Shown: in pieces, positions 4,240-26,224 of the stretch
Numbering within the stretch: position 1 is the stretch's first letter
How the letters are laid out: each line of letters begins with the position of its first letter
IMG/VR virus record: IMGVR_UViG_3300029686_000225
DNA length: 48,664 bases
Direction: 5' to 3' (one strand)
DNA from: a virus
Lineage: Duplodnaviria; Heunggongvirae; Uroviricota; Caudoviricetes
Position numbers and translations under genes: made by a program
The notes under the pieces: model-generated
Databases searched by the model: none
What the model was told of the DNA's origin: nothing
What the model saw: the letters and a program-made list of their open reading frames with translations, nothing else

Positions 4240-4279
4240 TCTCCGGACGAAAAAAAACCGCCGAAGCGGTTATGTTGAC

Positions 4280-5672: not shown

Positions 5673-5684
5673 ACTCGTCTCCTG

Positions 5685-5710: not shown

Positions 5711-5731
5711 TGGGTAAAATCATTAACGACC

Positions 5732-6857: not shown

Positions 6858-6865
6858 GCTTCCTC

Positions 6866-7183: not shown

Positions 7184-7227
7184 CAGAAACTCCTGCCCGC
7201 AACACTGTGCGGGCATAAAAAACTGCA

Positions 7228-8454: not shown

Positions 8455-8467
8455 TATTTACTCCTGG

Positions 8468-10530: not shown

Positions 10531-11256
10531 TTAAAGCGAGCGGATACCAACACTGATCAGGTGTTCAGACAGATCCGGCTCCGGTTCACCGCCATTGACC
10601 AGCATCCGGCTCATTGCTGTAAACATCGCAACAGGGCCGTCGATTTTGGCTTCAGGCGTGGATTTATTCGGGAAGATATTGTCGTTTTTGTCCGGTTTTA
10701 CCGTAACGTTAGACATCATCCAGTTCATGACCGGGTGATTACTGTGATGGAAACGTCCGGCATAGACCAGTGATTCCGTTTCCTTCATGGCCTCTGACAG
10801 ATTGCGGACCGTCTGCGGAACTTCCACCAGCGGTATACCTTCTTCAGCCAGCGCCAGACTGAACTGCATTGCACTCCACGGGTCAAATCCCAGTTCCCTG
10901 AGGTTTTCACCACCAATCCATTCCAGTAAGTCACTTTTTATCTGAGCATGATCGATAACATCACCATCCGTCAGGATGAGCTTATCCATCTCCGCCCATT
11001 TCCGGTAAAGTTCTGCCTGCTGCCGCGAGCACCGCTCCAGCCGTCCTTCCGGGAGCCAGAATTTAAAATCAGCATGAACATGTCCGTTATCGGTTCGCCA
11101 GAGTTTTGCCGCCGCACAGATATCAATCTTATGAGCAAGGTCGACGCCGACCCACATGGGATACGTTTTCAGCTCATGTCGTGGGGCAATATATTCGCAT
11201 TTCTCCCACTTAATCATGTCCATCCAGGCAGACTCTGCTGTTACCCACACATTCAT
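10531..11256 (-). CDS. terL: terminase large subunit, C-terminal nuclease part of a gene interrupted by the inserted element
   Basis: Colinear with the C-terminal 240 aa of the intact satellite TerL ([13 protein letters not shown] vs NIWCQGATPWMGN); no N-terminal ATPase domain in this ORF; upstream in frame reads LTKH then a stop. Confidence 0.85.
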
Positions 11257-11260
11257 GTGT

Positions 11261-11274
11261 TTGGTAAGAATATT
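11261..11274. repeat. left junction repeat of inserted element (att core TTGGTAAGAATATT)
   Basis: 12 of 14 identical to 26211-26224; 7-bp perfect core TTGGTAA; lies in terL codons L-T-K. Confidence 0.7.
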
Positions 11275-11520
11275 TCAAGTTTTTTAAAATCACCTGTATA
11301 TCAATCGTTTAACATGAAAAAACAGTCTTTATAAATCATCAAGCAATACACAGCGCAATACACGTATCTGTATTGTTTTAATGCTGATACACACCGTTTT
11401 TTGATATAGTGATTCGACCTACCATCGCGAAGCATTTTTTATTTCTTGTGTGTAACAATCTGACGAGGTGAGCACTCAAAGAGATAAGAGGCAGTAGAAA
11501 TTTCGATCCCCCCCTGAATG

Positions 11521-11701
11521 CAATTTTTCGTATATATATACAAAACAGCGCGGGTTATGCGGGTTAGCGGGTTATCTTCGCGTGCTAAGTATTTTTACTC
11601 TTTAATATCAATGCGTTAAAAAACAACGTATTTAAATATCAGCCAGAATGTAACCCGCAAGACATTCAAAATAACCCGCAAACACCCCTCAAATAACCCG
11701 C
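11521..11701. repeat. iteron cluster (GCGGGTTA x3 direct, TAACCCGC x3 inverted) with adjacent (TA)n tract
   Basis: Direct copies at 11550, 11559, 11567; inverted at 11651, 11672, 11694; alternating TATATATATA at 11531-11545. Confidence 0.7.
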
Positions 11702-11782
11702 AAAAACATCCCTGAAAGTGGGTACCGGTAATACTGAAAATTTATTCCATTAAATGAGCATTGTCCTCTCTCATCCATTCCG

Positions 11783-13444
11783 TTACACACCATCAAACGC
11801 CGCAAGCCGCTCTTTGTGGCTGTCGCTCATATCGAATGCAAATTCCTCATGCTCTGCCTGGAATGTGCCAAACGCCATCAGCGCCGCAACGCTCGGGTCT
11901 ATCTTGTTGGATGATTTTTTCTTGTTCGGCTTGATATTGGCGTTCGCGTCACTCTGCATCACAACATTACTCATTGACCAGGCCAGCACCGGATCACCAC
12001 GATGCACAATCACCTTCCGGTTAACAAAAACTTCGAACGATTTCGCCGCCGGACTGAAACGAAGGTATGTTTGCGGGAACGGCTCCACCTCAAATCCTGC
12101 GCCCTGTAGCTGCGTCCTCAGGTGCGTGGCGTTCCATGTATCGAAACCCACCAGCCTGATATTGAAATTCTCTGCATCCGCCATGATGTCATCACGGATA
12201 CGGTCATAATCAATGCAGTCACCCGGTGTTGTGCGTATCCAGCCCGCCTTTACCCACTGGCGATAGATGGCGCGGTTTTTATTGGCGGGGTTCTGTAGCT
12301 GAAATTCCGGCAGATAGTGACGGGAAACCAGCATAATCTTTTTACCGACCGGAAAGGCATAGCACACGCTGGAAATATCGCTGGTTGATGATAAGTCCAG
12401 CCCCGCGTAGCACTCCTGCCCGTATAAATCCGCCTCCGCGAACGTTCCGGCGCACTCCGCCCATGCACCATTACCCATCCACGGCGTAGCCCCCTGACAC
12501 CAGATATTGAATCGCTTGGTGAGCATTTCCACCCACTGCGACGGAATACCCCGCGCTTTCTGGATGGTTGAGGCCAGTTTTTCACGATCGACGGAAACAT
12601 CGATATTGGGATTCGCCTTTATCCACATCTCCGGATCGTCAACCTCGCTTTCATCATCCAGCTCGTAAATCAGCACGAACATGGATTCGTTCACCTCTTC
12701 ACCATCCAGTATCTGGCAGCAATAGTCGTAGTGTTGTTTACAGGCTGAAACAACGTTGCTCCCCGATGTGGTGATGGCAAATAATAACCCCTCCGGGCGT
12801 GCCCCCATTCCCAGTTCAAGCGCGGAATAAACCCCGTTGTCAGGGTGCAGGTGATATTCATCCACAATGGCAAGACTCGGGTTTGTACCTTCAATGGTTG
12901 CCGCTTTTGCTGCCAGCGGCTTTAACAGGCTGTTGGTTTTTGGGTGTATCACCTTGTGTGCCTGAATATTTACCCGCTTTCGTAACGGTCGGGATAAAAG
13001 GCACATCTGACGCGCATCATCAAACACGATCCGCGCCTGATCACGACTCACGGCGGCGGTGTAAATATCCTGCTGCCCGTTTTCCATAACCAGAAACCAG
13101 TTAGCCAGGATAGCGGCGACCGTGGATTTGGCATTTTTTCGCGGTACTTCAATGAATGCGCTGGTGTATTTGCGCCGCCCGGTGGCCTTAACCTTAAAGC
13201 CCAGGATGCACGCAAAGGCGAACTGCTGCCACGGCTCCAGTTTAATTGGGCTACCGCGCATTGCGCCTTTTACGTGCGGACACACCCTGGAAAAGGCAAT
13301 AAACCGCTCCACGACCTCCGGATCGAACGTGTAAAGGGGGTTTTCAAGGTCATAAAAATACCGTTTAACGGCCTGTTTCAGTCGTTTACAGGCCGTAATT
13401 TTGCCGTTTTTTACGCCTTCTGCGTACTCATGCCAGGCGGTCAA
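11783..13444 (-). CDS. terL: terminase large subunit (satellite copy, intact)
   Basis: 553 aa; P-loop-like region RKNAKST, Walker B IVDEYH, C-terminal nuclease domain; TTG start with GAGGA RBS, overlapping terS end. Confidence 0.9.
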   Translation of the reverse strand: MTAWHEYAEGVKNGKITACKRLKQAVKRYFYDLENPLYTFDPEVVERFIAFSRVCPHVKGAMRGSPIKLEPWQQFAFACILGFKVKATGRRKYTSAFIEVPRKNAKSTVAAILANWFLVMENGQQDIYTAAVSRDQARIVFDDARQMCLLSRPLRKRVNIQAHKVIHPKTNSLLKPLAAKAATIEGTNPSLAIVDEYHLHPDNGVYSALELGMGARPEGLLFAITTSGSNVVSACKQHYDYCCQILDGEEVNESMFVLIYELDDESEVDDPEMWIKANPNIDVSVDREKLASTIQKARGIPSQWVEMLTKRFNIWCQGATPWMGNGAWAECAGTFAEADLYGQECYAGLDLSSTSDISSVCYAFPVGKKIMLVSRHYLPEFQLQNPANKNRAIYRQWVKAGWIRTTPGDCIDYDRIRDDIMADAENFNIRLVGFDTWNATHLRTQLQGAGFEVEPFPQTYLRFSPAAKSFEVFVNRKVIVHRGDPVLAWSMSNVVMQSDANANIKPNKKKSSNKIDPSVAALMAFGTFQAEHEEFAFDMSDSHKERLAAFDGV

Positions 13445-13784
13445 GCTCGTCCTCTTCCTCTGTTTCCGGTGGATTTCTGCGGCGGCTTACCGGGTCAAAA
13501 CCCAGCAAAGAAGCCATTTTGATCATTATTCTTTCTGCGTCAGCCTTTGCGCTCAGAGCGGGGTTTCTGCTTTCGCTGCCCTGACTGTTAACAATGCTGA
13601 AGCCGCGCGTCGCAAGGTCTTCGACGGCTTTGCGGTATATGGAGTAGTTAACGCAATACAGTTCCAGATTGCTCCAGTCGGCGGGGGTAAGGTCTTCCCG
13701 CCCGGAAAGCTGGCGCGATTTTTCCTTCCACTGCCTGACCGCGATTTCATCCAGGTAAGCGGGGGCTTTTGGTGGTCTTGCCAT
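13428..13784 (-). CDS. terS: terminase small subunit (P27 family)
   Basis: Starts MARPPKAPAYLDE; homologous to the prophage TerS (MSGPPKTPPRL...); immediately upstream of terL. Confidence 0.8.
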   Translation of the reverse strand: MARPPKAPAYLDEIAVRQWKEKSRQLSGREDLTPADWSNLELYCVNYSIYRKAVEDLATRGFSIVNSQGSESRNPALSAKADAERIMIKMASLLGFDPVSRRRNPPETEEEDELDRLA

Positions 13785-14072
13785 GTTCTTTTTTCGCCCA
13801 ATTATTTTCAAAAAAATTTCCGTGCACAAAAATTTGAGGAGGCGGTCGGTGTCCGGCAGGGACGGTTTTGTCCTGAAAACCTCCCCCACCCCCTCTGACG
13901 GCCTCACCAGCGATTGCGAAAACATTCCATGACCTCGCGGTCACGGTCGGTTAATCGCTTCGCTGTGGTGCGTTCTGTGCGCCCTGTCCTGTTGGCTTTG
14001 TGCCCTGTCTCCTGTGTCTTCCATAAGTCACGCTGCCTTATCAGTCCACGTATCAGCCTGTTTTGCTCCTGT

Positions 14073-14513
14073 TCAGTCATCATCGCCATACATCCAGTCG
14101 TTACGGTGTGCCGCCCGTTCTTCCTGCTCGCGATACATACCCGCCTTACGGTTCGCTTTCGTGGCTGGATCTTCCCGTGTTGTCTTACGGTTATGGCACG
14201 TCTGGCACAATGCCTGGTGGTTCCACTCAGGCCAGAAGAGAACATCACCGCCGCCATTGATGGGAATGATGTGATCCACCACAAGAGCTGGCGTATAAAT
14301 CCCCTTAGCCAGACAACGCACGCATAACGGATTTTTGCTCAGGTACAGGGCGCGGTATTTGTCCCACTGTCGGGAATACCCGCGCGCGCGGCGGTGTCCC
14401 CGTCTGGCATCCTCTGCACGCCATGCAGCCCGCCTGTGATCTTCGCACTTGCCGGACTTCACGCGCTTATTACAGCCCGGCTCAGTGCATCGCCTTAATG
14501 GTTGCCACGGCAT
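14073..14513 (-). CDS. HNH endonuclease (packaging-associated)
   Basis: Cys-rich Zn motifs and HNH core (DHIIPINGGG ... CQTCHNRK); located upstream of terS. Confidence 0.85.
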   Translation of the reverse strand: MPWQPLRRCTEPGCNKRVKSGKCEDHRRAAWRAEDARRGHRRARGYSRQWDKYRALYLSKNPLCVRCLAKGIYTPALVVDHIIPINGGGDVLFWPEWNHQALCQTCHNRKTTREDPATKANRKAGMYREQEERAAHRNDWMYGDDD

Positions 14514-14812
14514 CAGTACACCCCTACATCACGATAAACCGACCAGAGCGCAGAAATAGCCATAGGCAGTTCAGACTGCTCCACAGGTGAAACCGCTTCC
14601 CTGTTCTCGTACAGGAAAGCGATGTACATCAGGCAACCAACACGTATTGCCGGGGTAAATTCCAGCCCGTCTTCAAAACGTTTCCCGATATGCTTCTGGC
14701 AGGCTTCCAGCGCCGCATCGGTATACATTTTCAGAAGTTCGCCTTCTCCGGAAAAGTCATCAAGGCGAAGATGTGCCCTGACTTCATCAGGTGTAATTTT
14801 TTCTTCACTCAT
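14513..14812 (-). CDS. gp6-like head-tail connector protein
   Basis: Starts MSEEKITPDEVRAHLRLDD, the gp6-like signature; GGTGA RBS. Confidence 0.65.
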   Translation of the reverse strand: MSEEKITPDEVRAHLRLDDFSGEGELLKMYTDAALEACQKHIGKRFEDGLEFTPAIRVGCLMYIAFLYENREAVSPVEQSELPMAISALWSVYRDVGVY

Positions 14813-16019
14813 CTTTTTCACCTTTAATTTCCACCGTCTGCTTCCATGCCTGGCTGAATTCGTCGCCACCTTCACGCGGCGGCATCCCCTCACGTTCGCG
14901 GGCTTCGTTCGGATTCATGATCCCGTTCTTAATCCCTTTCTCATACGTGGCGTAACGTTCGGTAGGGGTGGCGCGTAATAAATCGGCTGAATCAAACTCA
15001 ACCAGATAACGGGTACCAGGTACGGGAGAAGCCACCAGCAAAGCGGCCTTAATTTGCTGTTCGAAGTTCGCCAGCCATGGGCGCATTGTCATGGTCAGAA
15101 ACGCGCGGCTTGCCTCGCTGAAATTGCTGTAGGTGCTGTTGCTGTATTCCTGCAGAAAAATAGGCGATACGTTGAACATCCGGGCGATGTCTTCAATGGA
15201 GAAGCGACGGGAGGCCAGCCATTCCGCATCCTGGTTACTCATCCCCAGTTGCTTGTAATCCATGCCCCCTTCAAGGATTGGCGTTTTTCCGGCATTTTTC
15301 GCCCCCTTGTAGCGTTCCAGGGCGTCTAATGCCTGTTTACCTTTCACGCCGTCCAGCCATTCGCCTGACGTGATAATCCCTGCCGCCATCATGCCATCTT
15401 TCATAATGCTGGCTCCGTGACGCTGTTGAGCAAGGCCAAGCCCCAGCGCCTCACGGCAAATCGTGACGGGGGAACGTCCCAGAAAGCCATCATCCGAGGC
15501 ATAGCGGAGATGCAGGACTTCTTCCTGTAAATACGTGCGTACCGTTCCTGTATAGGGTTCGGTGATGGTATAGCGGTATTTGTGTGCGCCTGTGCGTTCC
15601 GGTACAACACACCCCGGCGCATAAGGATGAAGTGATTTTGGCTGACCGTCCCGCCCCCATTCAATAACCGCATAGGCGTTACCGTTCAGCAGGCAGTGAC
15701 GCATCATTGTGCGTTTAAACTGGTAAGGTGTCTGGCACGAATTAGGCTGCTCATTCAGCAGAATATCTACCGGATGACTGTCCAGCCATTCCCGCGCCTC
15801 CCTGCCCTTGTCATTACGTACCAGATACAGATAACACGGCATCGTGGCCACCGCCTCAGCGATGACGGAAACCGCGTTCATCACAGCAGGCAATGATTCA
15901 GCCGTCCCGGCAGAAACATATTCTCCGGATCCGGTATTCGGTACGCCGGACAGCGCCAGAAAATCATCAATGGACAGGTTACGCAGATCGCTTTTTTTAC
16001 GACTAAAAGGCCACCACAT
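14805..16019 (-). CDS. portal protein, HK97 family (satellite)
   Basis: About 404 aa with portal-family pattern; start directly after protease stop. Confidence 0.85.
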   Translation of the reverse strand: MWWPFSRKKSDLRNLSIDDFLALSGVPNTGSGEYVSAGTAESLPAVMNAVSVIAEAVATMPCYLYLVRNDKGREAREWLDSHPVDILLNEQPNSCQTPYQFKRTMMRHCLLNGNAYAVIEWGRDGQPKSLHPYAPGCVVPERTGAHKYRYTITEPYTGTVRTYLQEEVLHLRYASDDGFLGRSPVTICREALGLGLAQQRHGASIMKDGMMAAGIITSGEWLDGVKGKQALDALERYKGAKNAGKTPILEGGMDYKQLGMSNQDAEWLASRRFSIEDIARMFNVSPIFLQEYSNSTYSNFSEASRAFLTMTMRPWLANFEQQIKAALLVASPVPGTRYLVEFDSADLLRATPTERYATYEKGIKNGIMNPNEAREREGMPPREGGDEFSQAWKQTVEIKGEKDE

Positions 16020-16020
16020 A

Positions 16021-16581
16021 TCACAACCCCGCCAGTTCAGCCCAGCGATGACGATTATTTCCTGTCGGGCGTAATTCAGGGTGCTGTGCAAACAACGAAC
16101 GGTGGGCAATCTCCACGCCGGATTCGGGATAAGCAGGCATCGACGTTATCGTGATTTCACGGAGTTCTGCGGCGGTAACAGTGCGCAGATACGGTTTTTG
16201 CGCGATATTCCATTCTTCGCATAATGCGCGAAAGCCAAAGCTCATTCCTGTAATGTCGCCACGCTCCACCAGCGTAAGCACATCTTTTCCAAGCTGGGTA
16301 TCAGGCGGTGTCAGTTCAAAACGTAGCCCGGTGTTGTCCTCAGTCAGTACCAGTGTTCCGGATTTGGTGCGCCCCAGCAGTCGGGTATAGTCATGCTCAT
16401 ACAGGCAGCGCACATCATTACCCGCCGCCAGATAGTCAGCAAAAGCCCCCGGCGTGAACTGTTCGCGGAATTCGTCCCAGATAATTTCTGAAAGGCTGTT
16501 CCAGCGAACGGCATAACCCACCAGTTTTTTATCGCTGGCGGTCAGTTCAGATGTACGGATTTCAAAATCGGTATTTTTCAT
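16021..16581 (-). CDS. prohead protease, HK97 family (satellite)
   Basis: About 186 aa; GGAG RBS; motifs LGRTKSGTL and MSFGF typical of the prohead protease family. Confidence 0.8.
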   Translation of the reverse strand: MKNTDFEIRTSELTASDKKLVGYAVRWNSLSEIIWDEFREQFTPGAFADYLAAGNDVRCLYEHDYTRLLGRTKSGTLVLTEDNTGLRFELTPPDTQLGKDVLTLVERGDITGMSFGFRALCEEWNIAQKPYLRTVTAAELREITITSMPAYPESGVEIAHRSLFAQHPELRPTGNNRHRWAELAGL

Positions 16582-16630
16582 CGGTGTACTCCATAAAGCT
16601 GAAAAAGGAGGCCGAAGCCCCCTTTGCTCA

Positions 16631-17776
16631 TTACTTGCCAGCCTGAATTTCCAGAATCTTGATGGCGTTCGAATCCACCACACCACCGCCCAGATATTTC
16701 TGGGTATAGATGTTAATGAATCCGGGTTCGCTGAAATCCGGACGGGTTCGCGTACCGGTTTCATGGTCAACGATGAAATAACCGCGCTTAAAGTCACCTA
16801 CTGCAATCACACCGTCCGGCATAAATTCCAGATATTCAACCGGAAGCCCCAGCAGAGAATCAGGATCACCAGCCTGTAAACGATCGCGCCAGATGTAATC
16901 ACCAGTGGCATTTTTCAGTTTTTGTGCGGAGGCGGCTGTATTTGAGTTCATCACCCATACAGCTTTTTTGCGGTACTTATTGCGTAGCGTAAATTTCAGG
17001 TCAATCAGCATGTCGGCGCTGAGACTGCCAGTCACTTTTTTCGTCTGGAGCGTACCGAAAGGACGGGTTTTGTCGTTATCCGCAGTGCGCGGAAAAGCCA
17101 GGAAACCTTTAGCTTTTTTCTCGCCATCACCAGAAACCAGATCCGTTTCTTCGGTATCAACGAAAGTGTCGCCAATTTCAGAAGATAACCAGCTCATAAT
17201 ATCGACTTCGGAAAAATCGATAATTTCCTGAGTGGTTTTTGGGTAAGCGTAGATCGGATACAGGCGGATACTGACTTCATTCAGTTTTGGGGTTGCCGTC
17301 TGGTTACGTGTAGTGCCTTCTTCACCGTGTTCAACGACCGCGCCCCCGGCAGAAACCAGTTGCTTAAATTCATTGCTGTGAATGGTTTTAACGGTACAGA
17401 TTTTACGCATCACCGATTCATCAGAAAGCTGACGCATAATTTCTCTGTTCAGTTCCGGGATAACCGTATAACCACCATCAGCCGGGACACTGCCAGACAG
17501 GTTGCGGGTTTCCCCGGTCAGAATGTAAGAGCGCAGTTCGTCTTTGGTTATTTTCTCTTCGACGGAAACACCAGGCTGGTTACGTTCTTCATCAGCCACA
17601 GATTCGAGGCGGGAAATTTCTGTGTCGAGGGAATCGGCTTTTGCACGCAGTTCATCAAACTGTTTGCCCTCGTCATCGTTCAGGCTGCGGTTTTCACTGT
17701 CGGCTTTTTCCAGCAGGGATCGCATCTGGTTTTTCAGGGCGGTTTTTTGCTGGCGGAGTTCGATTAATTTCTTCAT
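16631..17776 (-). CDS. major capsid protein, HK97 family (satellite)
   Basis: 381 aa with N-terminal coiled coil and HK97-like core. Confidence 0.9.
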   Translation of the reverse strand: MKKLIELRQQKTALKNQMRSLLEKADSENRSLNDDEGKQFDELRAKADSLDTEISRLESVADEERNQPGVSVEEKITKDELRSYILTGETRNLSGSVPADGGYTVIPELNREIMRQLSDESVMRKICTVKTIHSNEFKQLVSAGGAVVEHGEEGTTRNQTATPKLNEVSIRLYPIYAYPKTTQEIIDFSEVDIMSWLSSEIGDTFVDTEETDLVSGDGEKKAKGFLAFPRTADNDKTRPFGTLQTKKVTGSLSADMLIDLKFTLRNKYRKKAVWVMNSNTAASAQKLKNATGDYIWRDRLQAGDPDSLLGLPVEYLEFMPDGVIAVGDFKRGYFIVDHETGTRTRPDFSEPGFINIYTQKYLGGGVVDSNAIKILEIQAGK

Positions 17777-18013
17777 GAAGGTTTTCTCGTATTGGTTAAG
17801 ATTCAGGACGTGAAACCAACACGGAGGGAGCGCCGCCCGACACTCTCGGCATCTCGCAGATCAACCCGGCATCGCGCAGGGGGTCAGGCGGCATTGTGGC
17901 GGCTCACGTCTGAGTGCCACACGCCAACATATACATAAAAATCAGTATGTAAACATCAGCCAGAATCACCGAACAACCTGGAACAACCACGAACAAATAA
18001 TTTACAAAACCTG

Positions 18014-18040
18014 AAAAAAAGACCCGGAAAAATCCGGGCC
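18014..18040 (-). terminator. intrinsic terminator
   Basis: Hairpin CCCGGAAAAATCCGGG flanked by A-run and T-run; minus strand reads hairpin then TCTTTTTTTC. Confidence 0.5.
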
Positions 18041-18049
18041 TTTATCGCT

Positions 18050-18298
18050 TTATTGTTTCACTGGATCCCGCATTCTGCGTCTTATTTTCCACAGATATTC
18101 GATCATCGCTTCCACCTGCTCACGGTTGGTTGCGAAAATTTCCCCGGTCAGTGAGCTACGCAGAAAATCATGATGATCCACAACAAACAACGCATCGGAA
18201 GAAAGCAGACGGCGATATTTTTTTGCTGTCGTGGTTTCCAGATCATCAAAACCATGAAATTTTTTATGTTGCTGGACTTCTTCAAATGTCACTGGCAT
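18050..18298 (-). CDS. hypothetical protein
   Basis: 82-aa ORF with AAGGGGG RBS; no recognisable motif. Confidence 0.5.
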   Translation of the reverse strand: MPVTFEEVQQHKKFHGFDDLETTTAKKYRRLLSSDALFVVDHHDFLRSSLTGEIFATNREQVEAMIEYLWKIRRRMRDPVKQ

Positions 18299-18831
18299 GT
18301 ATCCCCCTTTACTGCCCGGCGCTGGCGCTTGTGCTTCTCATTCAGCGCCATCAGCCGCGTTTCTGCCTCCTGCTGTTCCTGTGGTGTCACCTCGCCGCAC
18401 GGCTGGCCTTTCAGGTCGTAACGTGCACCACCAGCCATTAAGGCGCGGTAATAGCGCGGAGACTGCGCATAGGATGCCAGCGTCGCACGTAATGCCCCCG
18501 GCCCGAATGTCAGCCCCCTGGCGGCGATATCCTGCATCAGGTCGTCGCATATCCCCACCTTAAGCGGCTTCGGTGCTTCCCGGCTGAATAAGTCAGGCCA
18601 CATCTCTGTGAGGCGGTTAACGCGCCTGCGGTTTTTGCGCTGGCGTTTGGTCATATGCCGCCACGGTGTCGCCTCTGTGGGCTTCTGTTTGCGGCTCTGC
18701 TGTGCGTTCTGATTGCCGGGCATCACTTTATGCGCCGATGTGGCTTTATCCTGCTGCTGTGCCGTCTGCGTTGTTTTCTGCGGCGTGCCGTAAATGCCTT
18801 TCGGTTTTCGGTTAATGGTCAGCGTTGTCAT
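18289..18831 (-). CDS. ProQ/FinO-family RNA-binding protein
   Basis: C-terminal region PLKVGICDDLMQD...LRATLASYAQSPRYYRALMAGGARYDLKGQPCGEV resembles the ProQ/FinO domain; basic N-terminus. Confidence 0.65.
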   Translation of the reverse strand: MTTLTINRKPKGIYGTPQKTTQTAQQQDKATSAHKVMPGNQNAQQSRKQKPTEATPWRHMTKRQRKNRRRVNRLTEMWPDLFSREAPKPLKVGICDDLMQDIAARGLTFGPGALRATLASYAQSPRYYRALMAGGARYDLKGQPCGEVTPQEQQEAETRLMALNEKHKRQRRAVKGDTCQ

Positions 18832-18867
18832 GCTTTCCCCTGTAATAACTCTGTTCGCTGTTGTGAA

Positions 18868-19293
18868 TTAAAACGGTATGTTATCCCCGTACGGGTCATC
18901 GTGCTGGCTTGTCTGTTGTTTTGCCCTGTTCAGTGCGTCAGTGGCCTGGCCCTGCTGGCCTTTTTTGCCGCCCGGTCGCGCCGTTCGCGCACTGATTACG
19001 CTGTCTGCGATAACCTGCCAGCCCTGTCGCGTTTCCCCGTTCTGGCCTGTCCACTGGCTTACCTGCATGTTACCCGCCACGCTCACCAGTTCGCCTTTGC
19101 GGTGTTTTGCCAGTGCGTCGGCCTGTCTGCCAAACGCCAGGACAGATAACCACATCGTCGCCGTTCCGTCATCTGCCTGGCTGCACGGCAGGGGAACCGC
19201 CATACTCGCCATAGCCATTTGTGTCCCCTTGCTGGTGGTCTTTAACTGCGGGTCAGCCACCAGCCGCCCGTAAGCCGCTATCTGTGCTGTCAT
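18868..19293 (-). CDS. ssb: single-stranded DNA-binding protein
   Basis: OB-fold pattern and acidic C-terminal tail ...DDPYGDNIPF. Confidence 0.8.
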   Translation of the reverse strand: MTAQIAAYGRLVADPQLKTTSKGTQMAMASMAVPLPCSQADDGTATMWLSVLAFGRQADALAKHRKGELVSVAGNMQVSQWTGQNGETRQGWQVIADSVISARTARPGGKKGQQGQATDALNRAKQQTSQHDDPYGDNIPF

Positions 19294-19357
19294 GCTGTCT
19301 GTTCTCCGGTTTTAACGTTGATTGTTACGCTTGTTTACACCCTTACGGTGAAATTCT

Positions 19358-19480
19358 GCGGGTTATAATCGCACTTTTGCGGGTTATAACTGCCGTTTTG
19401 CGGGTTACGTGCGGGTTATTGATTTCCTTTTTATTCATACAGTTAATGCACTTATGCACAGGATAACCCGCATAACCCGC
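19358..19480. repeat. candidate replication origin iterons (GCGGGTTA x4 direct, TAACCCGC x2 inverted)
   Basis: Direct copies at 19358, 19379, 19400, 19411 (21, 21, 11 bp spacing); inverted at 19464, 19473; immediately 3' of the primase-helicase gene. Confidence 0.7.
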
Positions 19481-19503
19481 AACTTTTCACCTCACACAGG
19501 GGG

Positions 19504-21627
19504 TTAATCTTCTGCCTCAGGCTGGAACATCAGCACGTAAAAAACATGCTGCTTCCCCCCAATTTTGCCGAGCGCCTTTTTCTTGTAACGGCGATCGTTA
19601 CCCGCTTCCAGCATTCCGGCAGCACTCAACGCGCGGGCAAAGTGAGACGGATTAAATCCCTGTGCTATCTCACCCTCAAATACATGCGGGAACGTGTAAA
19701 AACGGAACTCGTCATCTTCGTTTCTGATACACCCCTTTCTGTATCCGGCAAGCTCTTTAATCGGTAAATCACGCTCGTCGGTGTTGGGCCACGGAAGGTA
19801 TCTGCTGAATCCGAACGACGCTAAAAAAGCCTCTGCCTGTTCAACCATCTGTTTAAACTCCCTGTTACCCGTGCCGAACTCCTTCACCCAGGCATTAAAA
19901 TTATGCTGAATGGCATCGCGGCACGCCTGAACATCCCAACCAGTAATATGGACGGAAAGCACCAGCGCCGACTCCAGCATGGCGAATCGTTCCCCCACAC
20001 GGTGAACCTGTTCGCCGTAACTCTCCGGTATCAGGTTGCGCCACCGTTCACGGCATGCCCTTACCGTATCCTTTGCCTCCTGCTGGTGGTCTGCCAGCCA
20101 TTTAACCCATTCACGCCCCGCCGCCCCGTGATTTTCTGTCCAGGCATCCTTTAACGCGTCTGCGTGTGCCTTTCCGGTGCTGTATTCGTGAAACTGCGTG
20201 GCTTTTTCCATTGGCACGTTAAGCAGGCGGACAAGCTGCCCCGCCTTGACTTTTATCCCCTCCGTTTTGAGGAATGTCTCAACGTCCATTTCTCCGGTGC
20301 TGATTGCCACCGTGCGCCAGTGTTTGATCTCCCTGTTGCCGCCGTCCTTCGCCCCCTGTAATTTCCCCGAACCGTTAAACAGCGTATAAGCCGACGTGGA
20401 CACTTCCCGCGCGTTTCCGGCCTGGCCTATTTCATCCAGGGGTAAAAGCCCGTCATTGTGTGCCTCTGCTTCGTTGGCGATACCTAACGCTGTGCCGTAC
20501 CAGGTCAGCCGCTGCGCGTCCGGCTCTCCCCATAAACTTGATGCGATGTTCTGCGTTGTGGTCTTACCTGCCGATGACTGTTCGAAAAGATGTACCCCGA
20601 AGCCGTCAGCACCCACCAGCCCGATTAATGGTGCGGATAGCGATACCGCCACACCCAGCATCATGGACGGATTACCACCAGCCAGTCGCGCCACACTGTC
20701 GCGCCAGCCCTCCGCCGTTCCTGCCACGGAATAACCATTAACGGCAGCCGTTTTTCCGGTAAACAGGACTGGCTTTTCGCAATCACCAATGACCGAACCG
20801 TCCGGCATGATGTACGCGCCAAAATGCCAGCCCGTTGTTGTGCTTAACTGCCATTCCTCATGGTTTCCGCTTAACTGCATCCAGTCAGCCAGGATAGCCC
20901 TGTATTTACCGTTGGTTGTCACGTTCAGTCCGTGGTCTTTCAGCAGCCGCCAGCCGTCACGGTCGCCAATGCCACCGCACGGAACCGCCATCGTGATGAC
21001 TTCATGGTTTGCTGGCTTTTTCCAGCGCATCACGCGGTAATGCTCTTTGCCGATTGTCCCCGTTCCCAGTAGCTCAAGCGGGGAGCATAACCACGTTTCA
21101 GGCCGGATAATTTCGCCTGACTGCTTATCCACTTTTGGCGTTACCCAGAAAACACCATCGGCGCGGCTTTCAACGCGGGGCTTTAATTCATCATCACCCG
21201 GGCTTTCTGTGATTTTTTTCTTTAAGGGCAACACCAGACTTTCCCCGCGCTCGTATTCGTCTTTGAGGCGAGGCAACTGGTCGGATAAATCCGCCGGGCT
21301 GGTGTCAGTTATCCCCGCGTATTCGTATACGGTCTTCACGCCAGCCACAGCCAGCAACGTGACGATCTGTGTGAGGCTACGTTCAGTGATGTGCCCTGCG
21401 CGGTAAATACGCACACACTGACGGCTATCATCAATAATTTGATAACCGGTAATATCTTTCAGGTGTTCATCTGACAGAACGACAGGCGGCACATTGTCGG
21501 CGGCAATATGCTTACCTGCCCATTCCTGCCACTCTTTCGCATGGCTCCACGCATCACTACCCGCAAAGATGATAACCTCCGTCATTTTGTCGGCTGGCTG
21601 GTGCTTTAAGTTTGGTGCGCGCTTCAT
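19504..21627 (-). CDS. replication initiator, putative primase/helicase
   Basis: 707 aa with Walker A-like SSAGKTT; sits next to the iteron cluster as PICI/P4 replication genes do. Confidence 0.7.
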   Translation of the reverse strand: MKRAPNLKHQPADKMTEVIIFAGSDAWSHAKEWQEWAGKHIAADNVPPVVLSDEHLKDITGYQIIDDSRQCVRIYRAGHITERSLTQIVTLLAVAGVKTVYEYAGITDTSPADLSDQLPRLKDEYERGESLVLPLKKKITESPGDDELKPRVESRADGVFWVTPKVDKQSGEIIRPETWLCSPLELLGTGTIGKEHYRVMRWKKPANHEVITMAVPCGGIGDRDGWRLLKDHGLNVTTNGKYRAILADWMQLSGNHEEWQLSTTTGWHFGAYIMPDGSVIGDCEKPVLFTGKTAAVNGYSVAGTAEGWRDSVARLAGGNPSMMLGVAVSLSAPLIGLVGADGFGVHLFEQSSAGKTTTQNIASSLWGEPDAQRLTWYGTALGIANEAEAHNDGLLPLDEIGQAGNAREVSTSAYTLFNGSGKLQGAKDGGNREIKHWRTVAISTGEMDVETFLKTEGIKVKAGQLVRLLNVPMEKATQFHEYSTGKAHADALKDAWTENHGAAGREWVKWLADHQQEAKDTVRACRERWRNLIPESYGEQVHRVGERFAMLESALVLSVHITGWDVQACRDAIQHNFNAWVKEFGTGNREFKQMVEQAEAFLASFGFSRYLPWPNTDERDLPIKELAGYRKGCIRNEDDEFRFYTFPHVFEGEIAQGFNPSHFARALSAAGMLEAGNDRRYKKKALGKIGGKQHVFYVLMFQPEAED

Positions 21628-21938
21628 TTTGCCTTTCCCCGTTCACGAATAATTTCACGTACTGCCTTAATGCGTTCCATTCCTGTAACGCGCATGATTC
21701 TGTCGATGTCGCTTAATTCTGCTGGTGGTGCTTTGCTTACCAGGGTGAACTCCCTGTCAAAGCGCATATGTGACGACACGCAGGGATGCGCATAACCTTC
21801 GCGGATATAGGTCACACGAAAATCATCGACGGTTTTAATCGTTATCGTGCTGCCGTATTTATCCCGGAAAATATCACCGGGGCGGATTTCAGGCCGAGCG
21901 TGACCGCTGGCAGTAAAGCCAGAATTTTTCTTTTTCAT
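21624..21938 (-). CDS. hypothetical protein
   Basis: 104-aa ORF; stop overlaps primase start (ATGA). Confidence 0.5.
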   Translation of the reverse strand: MKKKNSGFTASGHARPEIRPGDIFRDKYGSTITIKTVDDFRVTYIREGYAHPCVSSHMRFDREFTLVSKAPPAELSDIDRIMRVTGMERIKAVREIIRERGKAK

Positions 21939-21944
21939 GTTTTT

Positions 21945-22163
21945 TTACTCCAGAGGCAGCTTTTTAGCGGCGAGCTCAATATCAGATGTCAGAGAAACCT
22001 GTGTATTTGCCAGGTCTAACAACAAAGAAATAAGAATTTCTTCTCTGCTATCGGATTTATCGGTGCTAAGGCTGTTCATCCACATATTGACGACTTCCCT
22101 GATTTTTTTCGCAGAGTGCAGGGCTTCAAATGCCAGGTCTTCAATATCATGTTTATTTCGCAT
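21945..22163 (-). CDS. hypothetical protein
   Basis: ATG at 22163 with G-rich RBS; 72 aa. Confidence 0.4.
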   Translation of the reverse strand: MRNKHDIEDLAFEALHSAKKIREVVNMWMNSLSTDKSDSREEILISLLLDLANTQVSLTSDIELAAKKLPLE

Positions 22164-22398
22164 AATCGCCCCCGCCATTTTCACAATCAGCAATCAGGAT
22201 GGCTTTAGCCTCATTCAGCGCCATATCAGCGGTAAGCTGTGCGTAAGCCAGCGAATGCGGGATTATCGCCCCTGTATATTCCGTCTCTCTGGTAATGTGT
22301 TTTTCTGCGGTTGCTGCCGTGCATGAAATATCAATCAGCGCGTGCATTAGCGTTTTGATGGCTTCGGCGGCTGCGTCCGGACGGGTGTTATTGCACAT
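22153..22398 (-). CDS. hypothetical protein
   Basis: 81-aa ORF with AGGGGG RBS. Confidence 0.45.
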   Translation of the reverse strand: MCNNTRPDAAAEAIKTLMHALIDISCTAATAEKHITRETEYTGAIIPHSLAYAQLTADMALNEAKAILIADCENGGGDYAK

Positions 22399-22594
22399 GG
22401 CGTACCCCCTGACGAATACGGGCGGCGAATACCATCACGCAACCAGCCGGGGATTGCTGGCGTGCTTCCTGTTCGCTGGTGGCCTCAATGGTAATCACGC
22501 GCGGTTGTGCCGTGCTCAGGGCGATAAAACGCCAGATGTATTTATTCAGGTTGTGCGAGTCCCGCCCTTGCGGGTGTGTGGTATGATTTCTCAT
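22388..22594 (-). CDS. hypothetical small protein (first gene of leftward operon)
   Basis: 68 aa; ATG at 22594 with GAGGT RBS; only the 3' 207 nt of the 363-aa track ORF is taken as real. Confidence 0.4.
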   Translation of the reverse strand: MRNHTTHPQGRDSHNLNKYIWRFIALSTAQPRVITIEATSEQEARQQSPAGCVMVFAARIRQGVRHVQ

Positions 22595-22691
22595 AGCTAC
22601 CTCGATACTTCTGCTATCGTTGGTGGTTAGAAGCCCTGCGAGTGGTAACGACACTTGCGGGGCTTTGCATTTATGCGCCTTGATAATTTTA

Positions 22692-22727
22692 AGGTGTGGC
22701 CCACTATATGTTTTAGGTGTGGCCCAC
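22692..22727. promoter_or_regulatory. two 13-bp direct repeats AGGTGTGGCCCAC in a divergent promoter region (candidate operator)
   Basis: Repeats at 22692-22704 and 22715-22727, 23 bp apart, followed by TATACT and the RHH gene RBS. Confidence 0.45.
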
Positions 22728-22793
22728 GTCAAGAGTTTTATTTGTGCTTTTTCTGTGTATACTGTCCCCCACCAATCCACCAGAGGAATAGAA

Positions 22794-22973
22794 ATGGCAA
22801 CGGGTACAACAAACGCAAAATCACAAGCTCTAAAGGCTCGTGTACCACACGAAATAGTAAACGCCATGGAATCAGTGAAAGAATCAGGCGAAAGCACATC
22901 ACAATTCATCATTACGTCAATGCAAGGCGAGATCAAACGCCGCCAGCGTCGCAAGGCCAAAGAGCAGGAGTAA
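22794..22973 (+). CDS. putative ribbon-helix-helix-type regulator
   Basis: 59-aa ORF with AGGA RBS; only plus-strand gene in the element. Confidence 0.45.
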   Translation: MATGTTNAKSQALKARVPHEIVNAMESVKESGESTSQFIITSMQGEIKRRQRRKAKEQE

Positions 22974-23310
22974 CCATCACCAGCGCCGTGGTGTGAGGAA
23001 TCACGGCGGCAACCATAGGAGTAAAAGATGCCAAAACTTAAAAATTGTGCACTCTGTGCGATTGTTCTAATTGTCGCCGCCTTTATCTTAAAATCATGCT
23101 TCGAGAAAAAGAATCTTTGCGGAAGCAATGAAGGCGATATATTACGGCGTGCTTGCGATATAGAGTTGAAAAAAAGTTGAGCATAACCTAACCGCGACAA
23201 TGCCGTAGTTCCTGTAATTACAGAACAGCTCAGGATTTGCCCACCAGCCGCAAATGTGGCATTGTTGGTTATGCTCATGCGTTGGGGATAACGTGTAGCT
23301 TGTGTCAAGG

Positions 23311-23339
23311 GGCCACCGTAGCGGGTGGCCTTTGTTTTG
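23311..23339 (+). terminator. intrinsic terminator (plus strand)
   Basis: GGCCACC-GTAGCG-GGTGGCC then TTTGTTTTG. Confidence 0.5.
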
Positions 23340-23376
23340 CCTGTTATCCTGCAACTATGGTCATTTCGACCACGGT

Positions 23377-23465
23377 TGATATAATCCCCCCGCACAGATT
23401 CATTTTTTGCGCAGTAGGTTAATTGTTCGCAAGGGCGCTCCGGTAACGGGGCGCTTTTTGTTTTT
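23377..23465 (+). ncRNA. candidate small RNA (extended -10 promoter to intrinsic terminator)
   Basis: TGATATAAT at 23377-23385; hairpin GCGCTCCGGTAACGGGGCGC plus T-run at 23435-23465; no ORF. Confidence 0.3.
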
Positions 23466-23623
23466 ACCCACCAGCACAATAAAAATCTTCATTTTCCATT
23501 TTTGTAAAATTTCATGCTTTCCGGACGACTGGTAATATGTCATTTTTTAGCAGAAGATTTTGCCTTGCTGGTGGGTAGCTTCCCGGTCAACACGATGTAC
23601 CGTATAATCAACACCGCGTGTGG

Positions 23624-24217
23624 TTACTGAATACGCTCACCAAAGTAAAACTCAGGCTGGTATTCACGTATCAGCCTTTTTTCTTCTTCCTCCAGTTCAC
23701 GCTTTTTGCGCTTACATGCCTGTAGCTCCCTCCCCTTCTCGCTGGCACTTATCTGGTATTGCTCTTTGCGGCGGGAAAAATCCTGTAATGCGCCCCACGG
23801 GATACCATAAGCCCCCGTTTTTCTGATACCCGGTATCACATTTCTGAATACCCAATTACTGAAACGATGGGCGAACGTGCCAGGATTAACAGCTTTGCGA
23901 CTTCTGGCGATCAACTTGTAAAAACCTGATTCTGATACAACATTCCAACTTCTGGCACCACCACGCTTACCTGAATGACCCTCGGTTAAAGCTAGGGTCA
24001 TTACCTCATCGCTATCCAGAACTGAAACAGCATCGGTAACGTTGCTAATTTCCAGCGCCGCACACACATCAGCGCCAACAAACCACGGATCGCCGTTCAG
24101 ATACACCACGCGAACGTTCACACTATCAAAGCGCAGAACGACCAGATCGCGAATATCACAGAATTTTTTCACATGACGTGCGTCACCCTTGCCCGTCGCG
24201 GCAATATTTTTATTCAT
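23624..24217 (-). CDS. Bro-N domain protein (antirepressor-like)
   Basis: N-terminal pattern VRVVYLNGDPWFVGADVCAALEI typical of Bro-N/KilA-N; GAGGT RBS. Confidence 0.65.
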   Translation of the reverse strand: MNKNIAATGKGDARHVKKFCDIRDLVVLRFDSVNVRVVYLNGDPWFVGADVCAALEISNVTDAVSVLDSDEVMTLALTEGHSGKRGGARSWNVVSESGFYKLIARSRKAVNPGTFAHRFSNWVFRNVIPGIRKTGAYGIPWGALQDFSRRKEQYQISASEKGRELQACKRKKRELEEEEKRLIREYQPEFYFGERIQ

Positions 24218-24232
24218 CACTTTCTACCTCAC

Positions 24233-24264
24233 ATACAAAAAACCCCGCATTGCGTGGTGCGGGG
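24233..24264 (-). terminator. intrinsic terminator after alpA
   Basis: Minus strand CCCCGCACCACGCAATGCGGGG then TTTTTTGT. Confidence 0.55.
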
Positions 24265-24274
24265 TTGTCGGTAA

Positions 24275-24553
24275 TTACTTATTGGCGTTTTTGTATGGGC
24301 TGTTTACTTCCTTTACTCCTGGCGGATGCATAACCCACCAGAGCACATCAGAGAGCAACCAGGAAACAGACACTTTCCCTAAATGAGCACGAGCAGGAAA
24401 TGCTCCCTCCTGTTCAAGTACCCAACGTCTGCTTCTTGAAAGCCCGGTACGATTGGCACACTCATGTTCGCGTATACGGCGATCATACGGTTCGCCATGT
24501 TCTTTCAGAATCTGAATGCGTTCTTCGGGTGTAGGATAAATAAATTTTTGCAT
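24275..24553 (-). CDS. alpA: AlpA-family transcriptional regulator
   Basis: HTH_17-like segment TGLSRSRRWVLEQEGAFPARAHLGKVSVSW; GGTGA RBS. Confidence 0.75.
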   Translation of the reverse strand: MQKFIYPTPEERIQILKEHGEPYDRRIREHECANRTGLSRSRRWVLEQEGAFPARAHLGKVSVSWLLSDVLWWVMHPPGVKEVNSPYKNANK

Positions 24554-24566
24554 AAAAATATCACCT

Positions 24567-24592
24567 ATAAAAAAACCCGCCAAAAGACGGGT
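24567..24592 (-). terminator. intrinsic terminator
   Basis: Minus strand AACCCGTCTTTTGGCGGGTT then TTTTTTAT. Confidence 0.45.
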
Positions 24593-24616
24593 TGATTATA
24601 TCTCATTTAATTTAGT

Positions 24617-24838
24617 TCAGGGTTTCCATTCACCCTTTACCCATTCCAGCACCTCAGATAAGCGCCAGACTTTTGTTTGTGGGCCAATACATATTTTCCG
24701 TGGAAATTTTCCTTCCTTTTCAAGTAATGCTCTGTGTCTCCTGCCAAGAGCTGTTAACCATGCACATTCATCTTCCTTAATCATCCTGTCGATTGTTTTA
24801 TCATTTTCAAGTTCTTCACGCGTAACTATTTCAATCAT
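24617..24838 (-). CDS. alpA: AlpA-family transcriptional regulator (second copy)
   Basis: HTH_17-like segment AWLTALGRRHRALLEKEGKFPRKICIGPQTKVWRLSEV; GGTGA RBS. Confidence 0.7.
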   Translation of the reverse strand: MIEIVTREELENDKTIDRMIKEDECAWLTALGRRHRALLEKEGKFPRKICIGPQTKVWRLSEVLEWVKGEWKP

Positions 24839-26039
24839 TACCGTCACCACTAATTAGCTTATTCAGATAGTCGTACCACCAGTTCATAGCTTCTTTTTTT
24901 CTGTCCATATACTGACTTCTGTTATAAACCCCGGCAACACCGCCTAATGTGTGCCCAAGCAACTGTTCAACCACATTATGTTCAAAACCATGATCACTTA
25001 GCTTTGTGGCAAACACTCTTCGCATATCATGCGCCGTCCATTTTTCCGAGTGTTTCATCCTTTTCCATGTCTTACCGATAGTTACGCTTGCCGTACACTG
25101 ACGCATATCAAACCCAATCACATTTTCTTTGTTACCTGTTATTTTTTTTAACGTAACTAACCAGTTAAACATGCCATCAGGAATCGGTCTGATTATTTCC
25201 CTGCCATTTTTGCTATGATCAGCGGGAACGCGCCATAATTTCTTATCAAAATCCCACTCTACCCAGGACGACAGTAATACTTCTGACAGTCGACAACCAA
25301 AAACTACCAGGAAACGTAAAATAATTCGGTTTTCATATGATAATTCGTGATTGTCATAATCAGTATTAATACTTCGCCATAAATCTCTGATTTCATCATC
25401 TGTTAAAACCCTGCTTCTTCGCGCAGACTTTTTTCCCACATCACAGACCTCAAGATCATCAATTTCATGACTAATCGCGTATTTTCTTACCCTACAAAAT
25501 TTAAGCGCCTGTTTTGATATACGCAACAAAGCTCCGGCCTGTACAGGTGCTACTTTTTTTATTTTGTCAAAACACTTGATCCACATAGATATAGAGCAAT
25601 CACTAAGTGGTACATGACCAATCACCGGATAAATATGTTTACCAAAGCACTGCCTGATATGTTCTGCTCCCCTACGCTTATCCATTGCATAATTATCAAG
25701 CCAGTATTCAAGTGCCTCACGAACGGTAACAGGTTGCAAGGTGGCTTCCCGTTCAATTTTTATCTGAATCCGTGGATCTCTGCCCTCCGCAAGCCAGGTT
25801 CGACACTGATCGCGCATCTCTCTCGCTGATTTGAGACTCAGATCAGGATATTTTCCAAGTGTCAGCCAGATGGGCGCGGTTCCCCTTCCCGCCAGTCTGT
25901 AAAAGAAAACAAAACTAACACATCCGTATTTACTGACCCGTACCGAAAGCCCGTTACCATCAGCGATGGTTTCCTGCCTCTCACTCCTGCGCCCAAGCAG
26001 GGAACGAAGTTTTTTATCGCTCAGTTTGTTTAGCGCCAT
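24831..26039 (-). CDS. int: tyrosine integrase (P4/PICI-type) of the inserted element
   Basis: About 402 aa; C-terminal catalytic region with R...H..R and HDMRR...LLGH...Y; adjacent to the element junction. Confidence 0.85.
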   Translation of the reverse strand: MALNKLSDKKLRSLLGRRSERQETIADGNGLSVRVSKYGCVSFVFFYRLAGRGTAPIWLTLGKYPDLSLKSAREMRDQCRTWLAEGRDPRIQIKIEREATLQPVTVREALEYWLDNYAMDKRRGAEHIRQCFGKHIYPVIGHVPLSDCSISMWIKCFDKIKKVAPVQAGALLRISKQALKFCRVRKYAISHEIDDLEVCDVGKKSARRSRVLTDDEIRDLWRSINTDYDNHELSYENRIILRFLVVFGCRLSEVLLSSWVEWDFDKKLWRVPADHSKNGREIIRPIPDGMFNWLVTLKKITGNKENVIGFDMRQCTASVTIGKTWKRMKHSEKWTAHDMRRVFATKLSDHGFEHNVVEQLLGHTLGGVAGVYNRSQYMDRKKEAMNWWYDYLNKLISGDGND

Positions 26040-26210
26040 GTGATTTATAACCCGTTTTTGCAATACACAGTGCAATACACAAATGATGAAAACAGCCAGA
26101 ACCTTCCAGAAAAAACAAAAACGACGAACAAGAAAAAATCTTTTTCTTTCATTTGGTTACTAAAAAAATCAGGACAGGTCGCACTGTTGTTACGGCGTGA
26201 TGTTACTTTC

Positions 26211-26224
26211 TTGGTAAAAAAATT
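26211..26224. repeat. right junction repeat of inserted element (TTGGTAAAAAAATT)
   Basis: Partner of 11261-11274; lies in terL codons F-T-K. Confidence 0.7.

Follow-up and report, generated by a model that had tools for sequence, protein, structure and literature searches.

A prophage terminase gene split by a 14,950-bp insert

The DNA analysed here, a single stretch of 48,664 nucleotides (IMG/VR virus record IMGVR_UViG_3300029686_000225; 'the window' throughout), carries a lambdoid E. coli prophage whose gene for the large terminase subunit, terL, is cut by an insert of 14,950 bp. The insert is a phage satellite, and the prophage around it is referred to below as the helper. Nearly all long open reading frames (ORFs) from 1 to ~41.8 kb lie on the minus strand. 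The features of satellite and helper are listed in Table 1.

The insert is bounded by a 7-bp attachment (att) core, TTGGTAA, present at both ends as a direct repeat. The upstream piece of helper terL translates as ...ARVNFFTK up to the core, and the downstream piece lies directly beyond the other end of the insert. Both pieces abut at the same position of the TerL_nuclease profile and are therefore colinear parts of one gene. Removal in silico of one core copy and the intervening DNA restores an ORF of 1758 nt encoding 585 amino acids without a frameshift; the crossover falls at codons 338–340, and the gene is split at codon ~340. Of 5426 complete E. coli genomes, 909 have an annotated, uninterrupted gene for the terminase large subunit to which the restored ORF aligns in one ungapped piece over 100% of its length, with identities of up to 97.5%. 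The ORF also matches intact genes in 12 phage records, including phi467, Evi and vB_EcoM-606R7.

A reading of the window made from its letters alone (the sequence-only reading) had proposed that terL is split into an N-terminal ATPase part and a C-terminal nuclease part. The profile matches, the reading frame after in silico deletion and the single-piece alignment to intact homologs all bear this out, and the uninterrupted gene that it suggested seeking in related genomes is common. The location that it gave for the insert, 11261-26224, holds except at the right boundary, which is 26217. Its C-terminal piece, 10531-11256, is indeed the nuclease part but extends beyond the ATG at 11256 to the core at 11267.

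Because attP brings in no replacement sequence, helper terL is broken into an ATPase-only and a nuclease-only fragment. The predicted junction of the restored gene (attB) reads GTGAATTTTTTTACCAAACACATGAATGTG and that of the circular satellite (attP) GAAATATTCTTACCAAGAAAGTAACATC. Comparison of co-sited loci revealed two synonymous alleles of the core, TTACCAA and TCACGAA, both of which encode F-T-K in helper terL (loci L011-L013, L017, L022, L023 and L029). Within every locus examined the allele is identical at attL and attR. The cores of satellite attP and helper attB thus appear matched, which fits the need for identity across the 7-bp overlap region. The satellite's own terL was considered as a target and rejected: it contains no TTACCAA, and its equivalent peptide, MLTKRFNIWC, differs from that of the helper.

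Table 1. Features of the satellite, the split terL gene and the surrounding helper prophage in the window
Feature	Coordinates	Strand	Evidence and remarks
Helper head, neck and tail genes, 3' of the insertion	1..10337	-	PHROGs, blastp, parallel PGAP annotation in E. coli 042
Helper terL 3' part, nuclease domain	10531..11260	-	Pfam TerL_nuclease profile positions 64-283, 1e-36
attR core TTGGTAA	11261..11267		Junction sequence equals published attR alignment
Doubled attP arm motif, second copy	11343..11363	-	Repeat family D12; nearest edge 79 nt from core centre
Second iteron cluster, between satellite terL and attR	11550..11701		3 + 3 inverted copies of TAACCCGC
Satellite TerL, intact	11783..13444	-	Pfam TerL_ATPase and TerL_nuclease
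Satellite TerS, P27 family	13428..13925	-	Pfam Terminase_4 4e-23
HNH endonuclease, packaging accessory	14073..14513	-	Pfam HNH 1e-9
Head-tail adaptor Ad1 (gp6-like), sole head-tail joining gene in the insert	14513..14893	-	PHROG 40, 1e-28
Satellite portal	14805..16109	-	Pfam Phage_portal 7e-93
Prohead serine protease	16021..16797	-	Pfam Peptidase_S78 3e-45
Satellite major capsid protein, HK97 fold family	16631..17776	-	Pfam Phage_capsid 2e-60
ProQ/FinO-family protein, accessory	18289..18831	-	Pfam ProQ 7e-24
SSB	18868..19293	-	Pfam SSB 3e-16
Iteron cluster directly 3' of primase gene	19358..19480		6 copies of TAACCCGC, 4 + 2 in opposite orientations
DUF927 primase (replication zone)	19504..21627	-	Pfam DUF927 6e-46, PHROG 1139 DNA primase 2e-174
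DUF4222 protein	21624..21938	-	Pfam 9e-19
Small Icd-like/repressor-family gene	22388..22642	-	PHROG 6196 on residues 280-362 only; tblastn with O157 Icd-like protein
Bro-N domain protein, anti-repressor-like ('Bro zone')	23624..24220	-	Pfam Bro-N 2e-16, PHROG 2593 1e-77
AlpA regulator, copy 2	24275..24583	-	Pfam Phage_AlpA 7e-10, PHROG 2790 2e-34
AlpA-like excisionase/transcriptional regulator, copy 1	24617..24850	-	PHROG 2790, 2e-13
Satellite tyrosine integrase, 403 aa from ATG 26039	24831..26039	-	Pfam Phage_integrase 1e-18, Arm-DNA-bind_3 1e-17
Satellite attL arm	26045..26210	-	terL frame open for 56 codons, stop TAA 26047-26045; T6 tract ~26125-26130
Doubled attP arm motif, int-proximal copy, coding strand GTGTATTGCACTGTGTATTGC	26060..26080	-	Repeat family D12; nearest edge 134 nt from core centre
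attL core TTGGTAA (coding strand TTACCAA)	26211..26217		Direct repeat; equals att identity 'ttaccaa' of A_Terminase_1_246
Helper terL 5' part	26218..27238	-	Codons 1-340; full ATPase domain and first ~60 nuclease-profile positions; Pfam TerL_ATPase 8e-28, TerL_nuclease 2-68
Helper TerS	27238-27720	-	Pfam Terminase_4 2e-25; upstream of split terL
Helper HNH endonuclease	27868-28221	-	PHROG 144 HNH 2e-43; upstream of split terL
Helper Q-like antiterminator (late-operon activator)	33298..34119	-	PHROG 127 / 25523, 1e-110
Helper Cro	41557-41847	-	Pfam P22_Cro 2e-15; immunity region 41557..42529
Helper CI-like repressor with S24 peptidase domain	41891-42529	+	Peptidase_S24 2e-13 and HTH_3

The insert is a further copy of a catalogued helper-embedded satellite

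Helper-embedded phage-inducible chromosomal islands (HE-PICIs) have been described by Tommasini, Mageeney and Williams (2023, NAR Genom Bioinform 5:lqad036; PMC10111431), whose supplementary table includes an E. coli group of ~15 kb, A_Terminase_1_246 (A:Terminase_1:246), with the att identity 'ttaccaa'. One listed member, Eco4041.15.A_Terminase_1_246, occupies CP016546.1/4486766-4502213 in the helper Eco4041.57.S (PMC10111431) and is the same locus as two of our hits (H46 and H86). When reverse-complemented, both junctions of the window agree letter for letter with sequences in the published attL and attR alignments. A doubled motif reported only from HE-PICIs, tgTGTATTGCantgTGTATTGCa, has two co-oriented copies, one lying 81 ± 2 bp upstream of the attP centre and the other 132 ± 2 bp downstream of it (PMC10111431); the D12 repeats of the window are the reverse complement of this motif, present twice at the published spacing.

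The listed member, from an O177:H21 strain, covers 95% of the window satellite at 93.6% nucleotide identity. The two elements share the target codon, the terL family, the 7-bp att, the attL and attR flanks, the doubled motif with its spacing, a size of ~15 kb, a gene order in four zones and an orientation that follows the late operon, and they differ only by module-level mosaicism. The window copy lacks a head-closure gene that the O177:H21 copy has, it encodes a ProQ/FinO protein where the other has PerC, and its attL arm has a T6 tract that leaves the N-terminal TerL fragment unfused to the integrase (Int), against a T8 tract in the O177:H21 copy. In nucleotides, the int region is 93–98% identical to catalogued or co-sited members. 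The type of insert, its site, its att core and its junctions were thus all catalogued in 2023, and the window holds a further copy of a known element type. The value of this copy as a discovery is small, since over 60 sister elements are on record, together with the site and its att sequences.

The attR junction was found in 34 and the attL junction in 36 complete E. coli genomes, which answers in the affirmative whether the same site is occupied elsewhere, a comparison that the sequence-only reading had called for. The carriers come from pigs, poultry, cattle, humans, sprouts and river water and amount to ~4% of the genomes with this terL family, and the listed helpers lie at different chromosomal sites (tRNA-Ser and potB). 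The satellite attL arm was also present in 14 IMG/VR contigs, joined to helper terL in every one. None of the E. coli genomes in the collection is identical to the window; the best match to the attL junction stands at 99.3%, and that to the satellite at 98.5%. The related locus of E. coli 042 lies next to tRNA-Ser and mtfA, and both terL pieces are annotated there as pseudogenes by PGAP.

The satellite carries the genes of a capsid-forming PICI but one

The satellite genes fall into four zones: the integrase with two AlpA genes (24275-26039), the Bro-N gene (23624-24220), a replication zone with the DUF4222 gene, the primase gene, the origin and the SSB gene (18868-21938), and a late zone that runs from the capsid gene to terL (11783-17776). 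Its int, alpA and primase genes lie on the minus strand, in the same orientation as the terS, terL, portal and tail genes of the helper. No tail, holin or endolysin families were found among the ORFs of the insert with Pfam and PHROGs.

The window has 12 copies of the octamer TAACCCGC, where 1.3 would be expected. Every copy belongs to one of two clusters within the insert, both of them built of inverted groups around A+T-rich spacers. In Gram-negative PICIs the ori sits downstream of pri, and the cluster directly 3' of the primase gene is probably the origin of replication. The cluster between satellite terL and attR is a possible second origin, a possible site for titration of Rep or a possible packaging site. 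Co-sited loci differ in their replication modules: a RepA helicase is present in L012 and L013, a DUF927 primase in the window, L001, L011 and L030, and a DNA primase family in L014. The presence of three replication modules behind the same int/att region and with nearly the same head module shows that modules are exchanged both among the terL-embedded satellites and with chromosomal cf-PICIs (capsid-forming PICIs).

The prototype cf-PICI is EcCIEDL933 (Alqurainy et al., bioRxiv 10.1101/2022.09.08.507074; He et al., bioRxiv 10.1101/2025.02.11.637232). A 15-kb phoQ-roxA element of O157:H7 strain Xuzhou21 appears, judging by its length and its genes, to be EcCIEDL933. The proteins of the window satellite are 93% (TerL), 88% (TerS), 84% (HNH), 82% (primase), 81% (portal) and 75% (capsid) identical to those of this element; the integrases are only 42% identical, which fits the different target sites. 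In its late and replication modules the window satellite clearly belongs to the cf-PICI type. Both elements are ~15 kb long and have int, alpA, a DUF927 primase, capsid, protease, portal, HNH, TerS and TerL genes and no tail genes. Unlike EcCIEDL933, the window satellite resides in a gene of a helper prophage rather than at a chromosomal site, has a second AlpA-like gene and a Bro-N gene, and lacks head closure.

Capsid, prohead protease, portal, HNH, TerS and TerL all have Pfam matches above gathering scores. The PICI-type left half (integrase, AlpA-type regulator and primase/replicase) is present, and the length of the insert is within their range of ~10-18 kb. Of the two head-tail joining genes of a cf-PICI, an adaptor and a connector (head closure), only the adaptor was found. 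No homolog of head closure was detected in the insert with the O157 head-closure protein as query or with PHROGs; within the window that query scores best against the head-closure gene of the helper (6540-6857), at 52% identity. In the absence of this gene the satellite has 10 of the 11 SatelliteFinder core components, a 'Type B' cfPICI that is still accepted by that tool. The gene is likewise absent from the satellites of E. coli 042, KFu019, 06-00048 and 2014C-3075. Its loss as an adaptation to embedding was considered and rejected, as the embedded O177:H21 copy has the gene and a chromosomal relative in yifB is without it. Its variable presence fits the published view that cf-PICIs swap adaptor and connector genes.

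These data agree with the sequence-only reading that the insert has the content of a capsid-forming PICI, given its Pfam and PHROG gene set, its homology to the O157:H7 element and its SatelliteFinder components. The integrase, AlpA regulators, primase, iterons and capsid and packaging genes that were claimed for it are all there, and tail genes are missing as stated, but the head module cannot be called complete with one of its two head-tail joining genes. By homology to the O157:H7 element and analogy with published work on EcCIEDL933, the satellite would form its own small capsids and take only tails from a helper.

The insert has eight phage-like head and packaging genes, which would also be explained by a small temperate phage, defective or without a tail, whose insertion in terL was accidental. 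We consider this origin extremely improbable. Lysis genes, tail genes and immunity genes of the CI/Cro type are all missing from the insert, which is laid out as int-AlpA-Bro-primase like other Gram-negative PICIs and has the cfPICI components counted above, and the repeated use of the site with a dedicated attP architecture rules out a chance insertion.

The integration zone abuts the truncated terL frame

The attL arm is 64% A+T, and the truncated TerL frame that enters it ends at a TAA 5 nt ahead of the int ATG; by a rough estimate the chance of the frame staying so open is ~2%. The same stop, 5 nt before the int ATG and with a T6 tract, is present in 20 of 26 junction sequences, a few duplicates among them. 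The other six, including that of E. coli 042, have a T7 tract (T8 in O177:H21), and the TerL frame is then joined to int in a TerL(1-340)-Int fusion ORF (loci compared for the tract: L001, L004, L018, L025, L026 and L028). The fusion frame explains the 'reannotate terminase/int fusion' note in PMC10111431. In this arrangement the translation of int may be coupled to late expression of the helper, or the length of the homopolymer may vary neutrally. The 5-nt gap and the T-tract fusion were not found in the HE-PICI paper (PMC10111431) and are minor additions to it, as are the two matching core alleles.

Terminator-like hairpins bracket AlpA copy 2 (24593-24574 and 24266-24241; terminator scan). 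In a consensus scan, no minus-strand terminator-like site was found between the core and int, or between satellite terL and the 3' piece of helper terL.

The stretch between the Bro-N and Icd-like genes (22650-23620) appears to be non-coding and regulatory. Two hairpins on its plus strand (23308-23333 and 23431-23458) are strong terminator-like structures, and it may also hold a small plus-strand gene of the YlcI/YnfO type. Tandem 22-nt repeats (22683-22727) overlap a strong promoter-like site (22732-22703) upstream of the Icd-like gene, whose call as a 363-aa ORF is probably over-extended. The P4-like immunity RNAs C4 and isrK, reported from some HE-PICI Bro zones, were not found in the window at the gathering threshold or in 22300-24700 at E<=1.

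The surrounding helper is a lambdoid prophage

The helper genes 3' of the insertion encode portal, protease, capsid, adaptor, head closure (6519-6857), neck, tail terminator, major tail protein, chaperones, tape measure and minor tail proteins. The portal, protease and capsid are of HK97 type, the neck is full, and the tail genes are lambda-like. The helper also has genes for RusA, a holin, an endolysin, an exonuclease and, at the right edge of the window, an integrase, besides those in Table 1. The identification of the host element as a lambdoid prophage by the sequence-only reading is well founded in its CI, Cro, Q, RusA, lambda-like tail and HK97-like head.

Two further features of the helper were observed. 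On the minus strand, genes for tRNA-Lys(UUU) and tRNA-Met(CAU) sit side by side (31842-31995), with the Q antiterminator on one flank and the lysis genes on the other; in the related prophage of 042 this position is taken by tRNA-Arg and tRNA-Ile. In the early region (35948-39149, minus strand), a low-GC pair (38-43%) encodes a C-5 cytosine methyltransferase of 365 aa and a GHKL-ATPase protein of 703 aa. This pair matches type II methyltransferase and restriction-enzyme models and is therefore a prophage-borne restriction-modification system.

Satellite and helper packaging proteins share little identity

A reading in which excision is not needed would have the satellite TerL, with its TerS and HNH, package helper DNA in place of the broken enzyme; the general idea has been raised for HE-PICIs (PMC10111431). 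The satellite TerL is indeed full-length and falls into the Pfam families of the helper enzyme, and it is accompanied by a P27-type TerS and an HNH protein like those of the helper. The two sets are distant, however. Amino acid identity is 31% for TerL (against the restored helper TerL), 27% for TerS, 32% for portal and 36% for capsid, and the whole range for TerL, TerS, HNH, portal and capsid is 27-39%, which argues for orthogonal packaging systems. A terminase must match the TerS/cos recognition and the portal with which it works, and cf-PICIs rely on that specificity to package only themselves. In addition, the composite of helper and satellite, ~55 kb or more, would exceed a helper head capacity of ~40 kb, as judged from phage lengths of 38-41 kb. 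Such a backup role for the satellite terminase is therefore very unlikely.

The experimentally studied HE-PICI, 11capE in prophage 50icd of E. coli NRG857c, is also a PICI that disrupts a co-oriented lambdoid late gene and has its own homolog of the interrupted gene (PMC10111431). The two share the attP motif, and PMC10111431 places HE-PICI integrases in a single clade, which would include that of the window. 11capE is 11 kb long, resides in the major capsid gene E, has no terS and presumably relies on its helper's cos machinery for packaging (PMC10111431), whereas the window element is in terL and carries HNH, TerS and TerL together with portal, protease and capsid. With this full packaging set of its own, the window satellite is predicted not to need the helper function that it interrupts.

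Staged excision would rebuild helper TerL

It is highly probable, in our judgement, that the insert is an HE-PICI of site group A:Terminase_1:246 with a cf-PICI late module, and that its staged excision rebuilds helper TerL. Precise, late excision after induction has been shown experimentally for 11capE, and a 'regulated gene integrity' model has been published for helper-embedded PICIs (PMC10111431). By analogy, in the terL group the helper would be unable to make TerL until the satellite excises; the sequence-only reading had proposed this consequence too, and it amounts to the published model.

The following course of events may be envisaged. SOS cleavage of helper CI would lead to Q-modified late transcription that runs from the helper into the satellite. 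A Q-modified polymerase would ignore the hairpins flanking alpA, as established in lambda biology. Read-through, together with the TerL stop 5 nt before the int ATG, would yield Int and AlpA, followed by expression of the replication and head genes of the satellite. Int with AlpA would then excise the satellite precisely and rebuild the intact 585-aa helper TerL. The satellite would replicate from its iteron origin, and its DNA would be packaged into its own small capsids by its own HNH, TerS and TerL and then joined to helper tails; the window copy would probably also need the head-closure protein of the helper. Packaging of helper DNA would be delayed until excision.

Several points weigh against this reading. 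The published excision experiment covers only 11capE, the member in the capsid gene, and not the terL group; virions were not recovered even for 11capE, and many helpers are truncated (PMC10111431). Some helpers look decayed, as in E. coli 042, where the integrase of the prophage is frameshifted. The distal tail-fibre genes lie outside the window, which limits judgement of the completeness of the helper, and that the embedding prophage acts as tail donor or inducer is assumed. Finally, the predicted attP junction was not found, with the exact or a degenerate core, in IMG/VR or JGI metagenome contigs. This last result is uninformative rather than negative, as the 14 IMG/VR contigs with the satellite arm, all joined to helper terL, appear to derive from prophage predictions in isolate genomes.

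The truncated helpers, the unrecovered virions, the frameshifted integrase of 042 and the absence of the attP form from the contigs searched would also suit an evolutionary dead end, in which the insertion inactivated the prophage and both elements are decaying, vertically inherited remnants that neither excise nor transfer. Against such decay stand the intact ORFs of all satellite genes and of all examined helper genes in the window, and the intact state of both att cores and both arm motifs. The insertion is present in diverse strain backgrounds (pig, poultry, cattle, human and river water) with helpers at tRNA-Ser and potB, the same att/int region precedes mosaic replication and head-tail modules, and the two core alleles are matched between satellite and helper. 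Together these observations indicate ongoing mobility, and a dead end appears improbable.

A prophage gene as the proposed target of regulated integrity

In the skin element of B. subtilis, inserted in sigK, and in Listeria phi10403S, inserted in comK, the integrity of the interrupted gene is regulated by the element. The window satellite resembles them in that a gene is split without replacement and would be restored by precise, staged excision (discussed in PMC10111431). It differs in that the gene it splits is part of a second mobile element, and in that the proposed beneficiary of the regulation is the satellite and not the cell.

The term cf-PICI is absent from the HE-PICI paper (PMC10111431), and the text of the cf-PICI papers, as distinct from their supplementary attB table, does not mention a prophage terL as a site. 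The terL-embedded group may join the two concepts in a cis-acting lock on helper packaging that keeps helper tails available, with int synthesis hard-wired to helper late translation and excision triggered by helper late expression. We put this forward tentatively, as a possibility that is less likely to hold than not.

As a clean and apparently intact example, the window connects the literature on HE-PICIs with that on cf-PICIs. For annotation, it explains the two terL pseudogene calls and, in some genomes, the spurious terminase/integrase fusion. Helper-embedded satellites show that an integrative element can take an essential gene of another mobile element for its attachment site and thereby control the life cycle of that element in cis. 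If the lock on helper packaging is real, a satellite able to supply all its own head and packaging functions would occupy exactly the helper function that it does not need.

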